Source of the DNA: Candidatus Heimdallarchaeota archaeon
GTDB taxonomy: Archaea; Asgardarchaeota; Heimdallarchaeia; Heimdallarchaeales; Heimdallarchaeaceae
Reading direction: 5' to 3'
Length of the DNA stretch: 64,000 nt
Assembly: GCA_030668825.1 (NCBI GenBank)
Contig: DAOVET010000001.1
Coordinates: 1 to 64,000 of the forward strand
The notes beneath the pieces were generated by a model that had not been told where the DNA came from, did not search any database, and saw only the letters and a list, made by a program, of their open reading frames with translations. Shown one piece after another: positions 5,596 through 8,481 of the stretch. The position numbers and the translations under genes are program-made. Position 1 is the first letter of the stretch. Each line of letters begins with the position of its first letter.

Positions 5596-6618
5596 ATGGC
5601 TGAACTTGAAAGCAAAAATTTTTGTGCATTCCATTTCAACAATGATTCTGATGGGGAATGTTCAAACTGTGGATTAGCTATTTGCAATCTTGACCAACAA
5701 TATGACTTACAAGCTAACAGACAATGTCAAATATGTTTTAACTTAACGAGAGCTAAGAAGATTGCAAGATATATTCAATTTGGTTTGTGGGGTGCAATCA
5801 TTTCGCTTGTTGTAATGTTATGGTTATTATTAAGAGCCAGCGGAAACACCTTTTATGCTTTCCTACCTGTTCTTTTACTATTAGTTGTTCCATATCTTCT
5901 TCGTCCCGTTCTGATGAAATTGTATTTCAGAGATATAGCGCCCATTGAGTCTATATTGCCTATCCTTCGTTATTTTGAAGGTACTGGAAATATGGATCAT
6001 TACAAACTTTTCTTGAGATTTTTAGGTAAATTAACTAAAGAAGATATTAAAAAAATCCATAAACCATTATACGATTATCTAATTCCTGCTCTAGCGTTTA
6101 ATTATTCTAAGTTACCTGAAGGTTGGGAAGAAGATTTGACTAACCATCTTCAAATTTCTAAGGAAAGATTTATCGAACTCATGGTAAAGGATTATCGCAC
6201 CATCTTGATTCAGACTTCCGTTCATAGTGCTCAGTCTAATATGGCTCTCTTCATTTTCTACTTGAGTGAAACAGCTTCTGATAAAGACCTCATTAAAGAA
6301 TACATCATTGAAATTACATCTAAAGATGTTTTGAAGTTAAATGAAGAAGAAGTAAATATCATCTATAAACATCTTTTAGAAGATTTGTATCTCTATGAAG
6401 ATCGATTTCTTGAACTCTGTGATGAATTGGGACTTAAAAAACAAAAAGATTTACTTATTCAACTTATAGAAAGATTTGATCCCCCTCCCGTACCAAAGAA
6501 TCAGATTGAAGCTGTTATGTCTCCAGACCAACTTAGGGAGAAAAGAAGGAAAGAAAAGGAATTAGCTGAAAATCCCCCCATTCCAGTAATTGAGCAAAAA
6601 ACCGATGAAACTCAGTAA
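5596..6618 (+). CDS. B-box-like zinc finger, two TM helices and a helical domain
   Basis: N-terminal CAFH-x7-CSNC-x3-ICxxD...CQIC; two hydrophobic segments at about aa 60-105. Confidence 0.6.
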   Translation: MAELESKNFCAFHFNNDSDGECSNCGLAICNLDQQYDLQANRQCQICFNLTRAKKIARYIQFGLWGAIISLVVMLWLLLRASGNTFYAFLPVLLLLVVPYLLRPVLMKLYFRDIAPIESILPILRYFEGTGNMDHYKLFLRFLGKLTKEDIKKIHKPLYDYLIPALAFNYSKLPEGWEEDLTNHLQISKERFIELMVKDYRTILIQTSVHSAQSNMALFIFYLSETASDKDLIKEYIIEITSKDVLKLNEEEVNIIYKHLLEDLYLYEDRFLELCDELGLKKQKDLLIQLIERFDPPPVPKNQIEAVMSPDQLREKRRKEKELAENPPIPVIEQKTDETQ

Positions 6619-6682
6619 AATCTCTTTTTTTCTATTTTGTAACTATTCGTAATCCATATATTAGCTAGTGTTATATCTCTAC

Positions 6683-6763
6683 TTGAGAATAGCGAATATG
6701 ATGAGGAATTACAACCGATGATTCCATGACTTTCCTAGCTCACTCTGATGACGTTATTCTCAA
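6683..6763 (+). ncRNA. Box C/D methylation-guide sRNA
   Basis: Intergenic. Box C ATGATGA 6698-6704, D' CCGA 6715-6718, degenerate C' (CCATGA), box D CTGA 6745-6748. Closed by a 12-bp terminal stem TTGAGAATAGCG (6683-6694) / CGTTATTCTCAA (6752-6763) with one G-U pair. The D guide is complementary to the conserved LSU rRNA sequence GUGAGCUGGG. Confidence 0.8.
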
Positions 6764-6804
6764 TAATTTGTTATCTTGAATAACTATGGCAAAGTCTTAA
6801 TAGG

Positions 6805-8481
6805 TTGGTTTCTATTTTTCTAATTATCACTTATAAAGGACCTCTGATGACAATAACTGGACGAAGCAAGAAAACAATAACATTTGCTTGGCAATTTGCA
6901 GGTATTTTTCTTTATCTTTTTACGATTGCTGTAGCTTTAATAGGTCTAGTATATTTGGTCTGGTCTTTTGTATTGATGATTCAAAGATTCTATGAGGTAC
7001 CGTTCCAGAATATAATGATATTAGAGTTTATTTTGAATCTAATAACCTTACTAATAGAATTTCTAGGTGTATTCTATACTGTTATGTTATTGAACCACAT
7101 GGCTTCTACCTGTATGAATCCTCCAAGTCTAGCCAAAAAGGAAATCATCATAGAAAAATATCCAACAGTTAGTATACTCATCCCTATTAGGCATCCTGAG
7201 TATGAAATTCTTAAGGAAACTTTAGTTTCCATTTCAGAGATTGACTATCCTAAAGAAAAACTTACTGTGTTCTTGGGTGATGATACTGAAAAAGAGCATG
7301 AAAGTTATCTAAAAACAGTTGAACTAGCTCACCATTATAACGTTCAACACATACATGATCCATCAAATATTCATTTCAAAGCTGGAATGTTAAACGTTGT
7401 CTTAAAACATGTAACATCAGAATTTGTTATACTATTAGATTATGACCATAAGATAAAACCAAAGATTATCACCAAATTTGTTAAATTACTTATGAATAAT
7501 TCACAACTAGCTTTCGTACAATCCAAAGTAAATTTCAGACTTGTTAAAACAAAACTGCAAGTATGGGAATCTGTAATGTATGCCCAATTTTATGAAGTAT
7601 TTCAACGATCAAAAACAAAGCATTTTACAGTTTTAACTAATGGTTCTACAGCTTGTTATCGCAAGGCATGTGTCGATGAAATTGGTGGGATACCTTATGA
7701 TACATTCACTGAAGATGTAGATATATCAGTAGAGCTTCTTGCAAAAGGATACAAAACAGAATTAGTTGATGAATATGGTAGTTTTGGTTTGATTCCAGCA
7801 AATTTCTCACTTTTCTTATCACAGATATTAAGATGGGCAAAAGGGAGCATGCAAGTTCTAAGACTAAGATGGAAGAAAATATTGTCAGCTAAAATGCCTT
7901 TCATTCATAGGATAGATTTACTGTTTAGTGCTTCACTGTTTTTTATTGCTTCTTCAGTATACCTAAATCTAGTTTTCTACGTTATTATGTATTTTACAAA
8001 GAGTACTGTAGTTCGATTACCAATGAGTGTTTTTCCACCATTATTAATCATGCCAATAGCATTTGCCGTTTCCTATCAACTTTCTGGAATAATAGCTGTT
8101 CTTTACGCTAGAAGGAGTGGAATTACAAATCTAAAATTGTTTGATCTTGTCTATTTCTTAATTCTCGCTCTCGTACTTAATCCATTTACTGTTTACGCTG
8201 TTTTCAAGTCCATGTTCAAGCGAAAAATCCCATCAAGAGATAGGGACGAATGGAATGAAAAAGTGCCTTATATTATACTTTCTTTTATCATTTCCATCTT
8301 GGGTGGTGGTCTCATTACTATCTCAGTACTTGATATTTTAAACAATGGGTTTACTGGCTCCTTTTGGCTAATTTTAGGTCTCATGGGTTTAACCATGCTT
8401 GCAACTTTTCCAGTGTGTATTTTCTTCCATTTCTCAACAAAACACAACAAACCTTATTTTGTTAAAGAGTTTAACACATAA
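6805..8481 (+). CDS. Processive GT2 glycosyltransferase (cellulose synthase-like)
   Basis: GDD, HFKAG, DYD, TED and QILRW motifs with N- and C-terminal TM helices; the real start may be ATG 6847. Confidence 0.88.
   Translation: MVSIFLIITYKGPLMTITGRSKKTITFAWQFAGIFLYLFTIAVALIGLVYLVWSFVLMIQRFYEVPFQNIMILEFILNLITLLIEFLGVFYTVMLLNHMASTCMNPPSLAKKEIIIEKYPTVSILIPIRHPEYEILKETLVSISEIDYPKEKLTVFLGDDTEKEHESYLKTVELAHHYNVQHIHDPSNIHFKAGMLNVVLKHVTSEFVILLDYDHKIKPKIITKFVKLLMNNSQLAFVQSKVNFRLVKTKLQVWESVMYAQFYEVFQRSKTKHFTVLTNGSTACYRKACVDEIGGIPYDTFTEDVDISVELLAKGYKTELVDEYGSFGLIPANFSLFLSQILRWAKGSMQVLRLRWKKILSAKMPFIHRIDLLFSASLFFIASSVYLNLVFYVIMYFTKSTVVRLPMSVFPPLLIMPIAFAVSYQLSGIIAVLYARRSGITNLKLFDLVYFLILALVLNPFTVYAVFKSMFKRKIPSRDRDEWNEKVPYIILSFIISILGGGLITISVLDILNNGFTGSFWLILGLMGLTMLATFPVCIFFHFSTKHNKPYFVKEFNT

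Follow-up and report, generated by a model that had tools for sequence, protein, structure and literature searches.

The element at positions 6683-6763 (forward strand) of the window, by which we mean the whole 64,000-nt stretch of DNA analysed here, is a genuine-looking and well-conserved archaeal box C/D sRNA gene, as judged from its sequence. We consider it likely that the sRNA is independently transcribed, that its D guide directs methylation of the large subunit (LSU) rRNA adenosine equivalent to Escherichia coli A2577, and that its D' guide is a weakened guide for the A-loop. The window corresponds to contig C20 of a 2.76-Mb assembly of the Heimdallarchaeota host (138 contigs, 90.6% complete), in which the LSU rRNA is not assembled and approximately half of the SSU rRNA is present (L001, contig C25). 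The element starts 65 nt past the stop codon of a 340-aa ORF (5596-6618, forward strand) and lies approximately 85 nt ahead of the likely ATG of a family-2 glycosyltransferase (GT2) gene (6805-8481). This arrangement is common to the family, with the 340-aa ORF upstream in 25/25 family loci and the glycosyltransferase downstream in 24 of the 25.

Anatomy and terminal helix of the sRNA

The sequence confirms the features described in the earlier note, with AUGAUGA at 6698-6704 as the C box, CUGA at 6745-6748 as the D box and a 12-bp stem enclosing the two (6683-6694 with 6752-6763, with one G-U pair, G6692-U6754). Three unpaired nucleotides separate the 5' arm of the helix from the C box, and another three separate the D box from the 3' arm. 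Between the two boxes lie the D' guide spacer GGAAUUACAACCG (13 nt, 6705-6717), a D' box (AUGA, 6718-6721), a UUCC linker that varies among the parsed homologues (6722-6725), a C' box (AUGACUU, 6726-6732) and the D guide spacer UCCUAGCUCACU (12 nt, 6733-6744), all on the forward strand. The C and D boxes, the internal D' and C' boxes and the terminal helix that define archaeal box C/D RNAs are thus all present. In the alignments, conservation peaks in the boxes and in the guide cores. The UGA of the C box is invariant in alignments A1 and A2, the U, G and A of the D' box are invariant or nearly so in both, RUGA of the C' box is invariant in the homologues, and the D box is conserved in them. 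Variants of the C box in the relatives are AUGAAGA, AUGACGA, AUGAUGU and AUGAUUU; the D box is UUGA in G026 and UAGA in G028, and the D' box is CUGA in 10 of 29 parsed relatives. The D spacer has 12 nt, and the D' spacer has 13 nt here and 13 to 16 nt in the relatives; a review of archaeal sRNAs gives guides of 10-12 nt and an sRNA size of 50-70 nt (PMC7994747), which is shorter than the approximately 77-81 nt of the present element including its helix.

On the forward strand the predicted fold has an energy of -20.0 kcal/mol (z = -3.06), which was equalled by 2 of 200 shuffled sequences, and on the reverse strand z is -1.02. In a scan of the whole genome for a C box and a D box flanked by a stem of at least 7 bp, 10 matches were obtained, and a stem of at least 10 bp was found only here. 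The helix is also supported by its evolution. Among 23 distinct homologues, 86.3% of the cells of the stem are paired, compared with 33.8-56.0% in controls with a slid 3' partner; in five pairs both sides have changed, and the observed count of double-changed cells was reached in none of 500 shuffles. Good conservation is limited to the inner 10 bp (6685-6694 with 6752-6761); of the two outer pairs, one is kept in 8 and one in 15 of these 23 homologues. The terminal helix is much longer than is usual for an archaeal box C/D sRNA.

The host appears to have several such guides. A strict C/D scan of the genome returned this sRNA only, and a scan that takes the targets into account gave at least three more convincing candidates, at C14:3002-3049 (reverse strand), C17:5260-5313 (forward strand) and C115:16282-16331 (reverse strand). 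One of the three is a dual guide whose two matches to the SSU rRNA, both 9/9 Watson-Crick, are approximately 73 nt apart, one has a D' guide with a 9/9 match to the SSU 530-loop region (CGGUAAAAC) and an 8-bp helix, and one has a D guide for SSU CCGCCCGUC. Since their terminal helices measure 5, 8 and approximately 4 bp, the 12-bp helix in the window is the extreme of a range.

Upstream of the element there is a TATA-like A/T-rich octamer, ATATATTA (6656-6663, forward strand), whose centre is approximately 24-26 nt from the conserved stem core, and a similarly spaced A/T-rich element is found in the upstream flanks of the homologues compared. The octamer is a putative archaeal promoter, for which the evidence is weak because the genome is AT-rich. 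As the two outer pairs of the helix are poorly conserved and the octamer lies approximately 25 nt upstream of the core, the transcript probably starts near G6685 and has a 10-bp helix. The U-rich stretch that follows the 3' arm (6764-6780) may be an archaeal terminator, and such a tail is clearer in the relatives, which have runs of 4 to 6 T. We found no RNA sequencing run carrying the locus, which says nothing either way on expression; two runs labelled RNA-Seq (X19 and X20) were judged to be probably DNA, and their three contigs fall at 6938-8019, off the sRNA.

Distribution among Asgard archaea

The element is kept throughout the family of the host. A DNA search of 60 relatives gave 22 homologues at E of 1.5e-6 or less, all in this family (f1), and a covariance model (R1) built from 26 sequences gave a match in 29 of the 30 remaining genomes of the family. 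It missed G010, which is 86% complete, and matched G028 only weakly (37 bits). The conservation in Asgard genomes that the earlier note had wanted checked is therefore present at the level of the family. In 52 genomes of the other families of the class, model R1 gave no strong match and two weak ones (E 0.06-0.09), which on inspection are not sRNAs. The weak matches in G038, G040, G028:C17, G006:C98 and G015:C203 (29-31 bits) have no D boxes or guides and were judged to be due to chance.

When one genome of each prokaryotic species was scanned for the pattern, 24 loci were found, 19 archaeal and 5 bacterial. All but one of the archaeal loci that carry a phylum-level label are labelled Heimdallarchaeota, among them those of the complete Ca. 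Heimdallarchaeum endolithica and H. aukensis genomes, which agrees with the previous view that the element is an Asgard guide RNA of the box C/D type. The 5 bacterial loci are without stem or boxes and were counted as chance matches. One further observation concerns a label: L053 (JBHLQZ010000224.1), labelled Candidatus Thorarchaeota, carries the Heimdallarchaeaceae sRNA. This locus is identical to that of G003, which the genome taxonomy places in the genus of the window, so that label and taxonomy are in conflict.

Two family genomes have a second, diverged copy of the sRNA approximately 75-170 nt 3' of the first (L004:1679-1769, forward strand, in G013, and L009:1337-1428, reverse strand, in G006). 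The second copies have degenerate D boxes (CAGU and CGGA) and a D' core, CGAACA, shifted by 3 nt along the A-loop. There is no second copy in the window.

Outside the family, the D-guide pattern was searched in 400 genomes of the phylum, where it matched 5 genomes compared with 7 genomes for a reversed control pattern; among the former, box C/D anatomy was found in G087 only. In the second Asgard class to which this genome belongs, an analogous dual guide occurs in 5/5 genomes (G087-G091), with a short terminal helix or none, a poorly defined D' box and another gene neighbourhood. Matches to the dual-guide pattern in G303, G353 and G373, from the same 400 genomes, were not sRNA-like by eye. 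The strict patterns, which may miss copies, yielded no example in 135 genomes of family f20 and no convincing one in 89 genomes of three families including f31.

Predicted targets of the two guides

The core of the D guide, CCUAGCUCAC (6734-6743, positions 2 to 11 of the spacer), forms 10 bp, 9 Watson-Crick and one G-U, with GUGAGCUGGG in the LSU rRNAs of relatives of the host. The site is the unique best one in the LSU and SSU rRNAs of three members of the same genus (G009, G013 and G004). It is present in all 13 LSU rRNAs of relatives, in which the wider sequence reads AACGUGAGCUGGGUU without exception. Position 5 of the guide (U6740) is opposite the A of GUGAG, equivalent to E. coli A2577, and forms a Watson-Crick U-A pair at N+5. 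The 10-bp duplex with one G-U and the adenosine at N+5, both of which had been proposed earlier, are thus borne out by the rRNAs of the relatives. For E. coli numbering we used the alignment of Dennis et al., in which the ungapped E. coli row has an offset of 274 (C2830 = C2556, 2880 = C2606).

A match of this length is not decisive in itself. When the guide was shuffled, 831 of 20000 sequences (4.2%) obtained 10 bp with at most one G-U in 7397 nt of rRNA and tRNA, so the assignment of the target rests on conservation and on the covariation of the guide, not on the match alone. We parsed 30 homologues, 29 from the family and one from another class. The guide core is CCUAGCUCAC in 22 copies, CUCAGCUCAC in 5 and CUCGGCUCAC in 3; these variants differ only by transitions opposite G or U, and all 30 copies keep 10/10 pairs with GUGAGCUGGG. 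Among 30 tRNAs predicted by ARAGORN, a set from which intron-containing tRNAs may be missing, there was no target for either guide, and the best tRNA site of the D guide has 8 Watson-Crick pairs and two mismatches.

The same adenosine is methylated in eukaryotes. In the Heimdall LSU, the nucleotides at offsets 0, +1, +25, +27 and +38 from the A-loop uridine are U, G, A, C and C, which match yeast Um2921, Gm2922, Am2946, Cm2948 and Cm2959; this equivalence rests on the offsets. Yeast Am2946 is guided by snR71 (PMC5199042), and its listed equivalents are human Am4493 (U29), Arabidopsis Am2936 and Dictyostelium Am3279 (PMC8817022). The earlier note had equated A2577 with yeast Am2946 and named snR71 as its guide; the offsets agree with the former, and the table in PMC5199042 gives the latter. 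By inference from the sequences, then, A2577 (= yeast Am2946) is a well supported predicted target of the D guide.

For the D' guide our reading departs from the earlier one, which had taken CCGA (6715-6718) as the D' box and a eukaryote-type SSU 530-loop sequence as a tentative target. In the relatives this tetranucleotide varies as CCGA, CCUA, CCAA, CCGC and CCAC, and the invariant box is NUGA at 6718-6721; the register of the guide was therefore wrong. Nor does the 530 loop provide the target. The SSU rRNA of the host itself reads GCCGCGGUAAAACC at this place, GUAAUUCC is absent from the 4 SSU and 6 LSU sequences checked, and the GGAAU portion of the guide is not conserved. What is invariant in the spacer is the core ACAACC (6711-6716), which is complementary to GGUUGU of the LSU A-loop, 25 nt upstream of the D target. 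Position 5 of the D' guide (A6713) is opposite U2552 in E. coli numbering, and N+5 falls on U2552 in every version found in the family.

The pairing with the A-loop varies greatly in length. In 14 copies, that of the window among them, it is 6 bp; 9 copies have 7 bp, G014 has 9 bp (8 Watson-Crick and one G-U), and G005, G008, G011, G022 and G017 have a 10/10 Watson-Crick match. For genomes without their own LSU, the A-loop sequence of the genus was assumed. In the 8 genomes that have both the sRNA and an LSU, the values are 6, 6, 6, 7, 7, 7, 7 and 10 bp. A pairing of 6 bp is less than functional guides usually show. Our reading is that the D' guide was directed at U2552 of the A-loop and has decayed in the lineage of the window. 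Decay of one guide within an sRNA family has been described for Pyrobaculum (PMC6009581). Elsewhere in the genome, a perfect 11-nt complement of the D' guide occurs at three other sites, close to chance expectation by a rough estimate.

Instead of decaying, the D' guide of a real sRNA might have been retargeted, with positions 4-13 (GGAAUUACAA) pairing with UUGUGAUUCC in LSU domain I (approximately nt 214-223 in G009) and methylation falling on the U that faces position 5. The LSU rRNAs of G009 and G013, which have the closest sRNA copies, do offer a 10-bp run with one G-U, that of G027 offers 9 bp, and such a target would account for the conservation of GAAUU in the commonest guide type. However, in G025 and G016, which have the same guide type, the site reads CAAAAGUGAUUCC and position 5 is unpaired. 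Retargeting also leaves the invariant CC at positions 2-3 unexplained and requires pairing at position 13, which adjoins the C box. Furthermore, a comparable run would be expected by chance for approximately 1 in 10 guides, a figure extrapolated from 4% per register and not computed. We thus regard retargeting as unlikely, and the decayed A-loop guide as the better reading of the D' spacer.

Another possibility concerns the function of both guides. The two complementarities are only 25 nt apart on the rRNA, and the sRNA could act mainly as a folding chaperone that clamps the A-loop and helix 90 during LSU assembly, methylation being secondary or absent. The short D' pairing suits an auxiliary contact, and paired guides that bridge rRNA sequences, with a role as chaperone, are discussed in a review (PMC7994747). 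However, a U-A pair at N+5 in a canonical 10-bp duplex, kept in 30/30 homologues, is the geometry of methylation, and eukaryotes methylate the same site (PMC5199042, PMC8817022). The two roles are compatible rather than mutually exclusive, and a mainly chaperoning sRNA seems to us decidedly improbable.

We give very little credence to a third alternative, in which the D guide of a real sRNA has its true target in another RNA bearing the perfect complement GUGAGCUAGG and not in the LSU. It would explain why the commonest guide has a U opposite G2581, which makes one wobble pair in the rRNA duplex. However, the 2.76-Mb assembly contains a single copy of GUGAGCUAGG, which is the antisense strand of this very gene, and the guide variants CUCAGCUCAC and CUCGGCUCAC misfit GUGAGCUAGG and fit GUGAGCUGGG. 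Finally, it is scarcely credible that there is no RNA gene here at all but a conserved intergenic hairpin serving as terminator or regulator of the 340-aa gene or the glycosyltransferase, as the intergenic position and the strong hairpin followed by a U-rich stretch might suggest, because the boxes on the loop side and the two guide cores, not the stem alone, are most conserved, the guides are complementary to two neighbouring rRNA sites, and the analogous RNAs of the other Asgard class keep boxes and guides without the long hairpin and in another neighbourhood.

Several features of the rRNAs themselves were observed. In the LSU rRNAs of G025 (L076) and G016 (L077), Heimdallarchaeaceae of different genera, the A-loop reads GGUUGUACGCC, with A at the position of U2555, and in these two genomes a U of the D' guide pairs with that A. 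The A-loop is GGUUGUUCGCC in 9 of the other 11 LSUs and GGGUGUUCACC, also with U at 2555, in the f4 genomes G033 and G035. A change at this conserved A-site nucleotide is unexpected, and the A at 2555 may be genuine, may vary between operons or may have arisen in assembly. The LSU of G016 spans 4235 nt. The LSUs of G009 (L038) and G013 (L039) depart from the others right after GUUGUGAGA, approximately 34 nt 3' of the D-guide target; they are 3577-3578 nt long compared with 3382-3416 nt, that is, approximately 165-195 nt longer, and their helix 90-93 region probably carries an rRNA intron or insertion. In the SSU rRNA, the 530 loop reads GCCGCGGUAAAACCAGC in the host and in G004, G009 and G013. 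Other archaea have UAAUACC and eukaryotes UAAUUCC at this place, and the Heimdall lineage is unlike both.

Protein partners, known guides and significance

The proteins needed to form a methylating particle are encoded in the host. Genes for fibrillarin (PF01269, 301 bits) and Nop5 (PF01798, 230 bits) are adjacent on contig C45, and a gene for L7Ae (PF01248, 89 bits) is on contig C21. In the mechanism that we propose, the C and D boxes, closed by the 10-12-bp helix, would form a kink-turn bound by L7Ae, the C' and D' boxes would form an internal K-loop, and Nop5 and fibrillarin would then assemble on the sRNA. The 12-nt D guide would form its 10 bp with GUGAGCUGGG in helix 90, beside the peptidyl transferase centre, and fibrillarin would 2'-O-methylate the A opposite position 5 (E. 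coli A2577, yeast A2946, human A4493). The D' guide, derived from a guide for U2552 in the A-loop and cut to 6 bp, would probably act only weakly or as an auxiliary, in the latter case as a contact that clamps this part of the rRNA, A-loop and helix 90, while it folds. The role of the long helix is probably to keep the two ends of the primary transcript together and to give stability to the RNA, kink-turn included, in this mesophilic, AT-rich host.

The A-loop uridine may also be modified by a protein enzyme. Approximately 6 kb from the fibrillarin-Nop5 pair, at G000:C45:65216-65746 (L134:1450-2046), the host encodes an RlmE/Trm7-like FtsJ methyltransferase, which reaches 203 bits on TIGR00438, short of the cut-off of 300. 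To judge from its sequence, this enzyme could make Um2552 without any guide. Exactly one strong match to the gene is found in each of 31/31 family genomes, so no link between the strength of the D' guide and the presence of the gene is possible.

At the gathering score, Rfam gave no match in the whole window, and a permissive search (E of 10 or less) gave 5 matches to generic C/D models, all with E of at least 1.2, of which the best was snoZ105 (17 bits, E 1.2); no snR71 or SNORD29 model was among the five. The sRNA is a new example of an already known kind of guide RNA. Helices 90-93 are a known hotspot of archaeal methylation (PMC4644070, PMC7994747), and in 5 of 7 archaea an sRNA is predicted to target U2552 (PMC4644070). 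There is a close likeness to sR56 of Methanopyrus kandleri, an RNA-seq-supported sRNA whose predicted D target is 23S A2851, equivalent to E. coli A2577 (Dennis et al. 2015, PMC4644070); its D guide ends in CCCAGCUCAC, followed by one nucleotide and CUGA, and has the same register. It differs in that the guide is all Watson-Crick, with C where that of the window has U, in that its D' guide is assigned to G2761, and in that the listed sequence has no long terminal helix; M. kandleri is a hyperthermophilic methanogen. In sR115 of the crenarchaeon Pyrobaculum calidifontis the dual arrangement is the same, the D' guide being directed to A-loop U2826 (= U2552) and the D guide to GUGAG(A/C)UGGG in helix 90 (PMC4644070). 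However, the D site predicted there is G2852 (E. coli G2578), one nucleotide further on, and sR115 has more degenerate boxes and lacks a long helix. With the same D guide in M. kandleri and the same dual arrangement in P. calidifontis, the target is not special to Asgard archaea.

In eukaryotes, yeast snR71, human U29 (SNORD29), Arabidopsis AtU29 and Dictyostelium CD11 direct methylation of the homologous LSU adenosine (PMC5199042, PMC8817022), and no sequence relationship of these snoRNAs to the Heimdall sRNA could be shown outside the guide, which is dictated by the target. The A-loop uridine addressed by the D' guide of the sRNA family is modified by yeast snR52 (Um2921) and by RlmE/RrmJ (Um2552 in E. 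coli). Compared with these, the D' pairing in the window copy is only 6 bp, and the host encodes an RlmE/Trm7-like protein as well. The earlier suggestion of an Asgard guide that shares its target with a eukaryotic snoRNA thus stands as to the equivalence of the position, whereas the link between Asgard archaea and eukaryotes that it implies is diluted by the identical guides in other archaea.

A stronger proposal would be that an Asgard dual guide for U2552 and A2577 is ancestral and that the eukaryotic guides of the snR52 type and the snR71/U29 type descend from it. If so, both eukaryotic methylations and their guides were inherited from an archaeal ancestor and later split over two snoRNAs, and the long helix of Heimdallarchaeaceae would be an early step toward the stem-dependent maturation of eukaryotic snoRNAs. 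We consider this highly improbable. The occurrence of the same guide in Methanopyrus and Pyrobaculum favours an old archaeal hotspot in helices 90-92 over a specific Asgard-eukaryote link. A search of full-text literature found no catalogue of Asgard box C/D guides or of predicted rRNA methylation sites. The locus provides one well-supported Asgard example, kept across a whole family near the eukaryotic stem, whose guides are directed to two rRNA positions at which methylation occurs throughout the eukaryotes, and it may serve as a test case for which eukaryotic rRNA methylations predate eukaryotes. It also offers a natural case in which one guide decays while the other is fixed.

Two minor observations concern the neighbouring genes. 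The 340-aa ORF upstream of the sRNA has no match in Pfam or NCBIfam, even at E of 1 or less, and shows 36-94% identity among the relatives. On the 3' side, a motif CUUAAUAG (alternatives UUUAAUAG and CUAAAUAG) is found approximately 25-50 nt from the sRNA in many loci, in the window at approximately 6797-6804, and probably belongs to the downstream glycosyltransferase gene as its TATA/BRE region.
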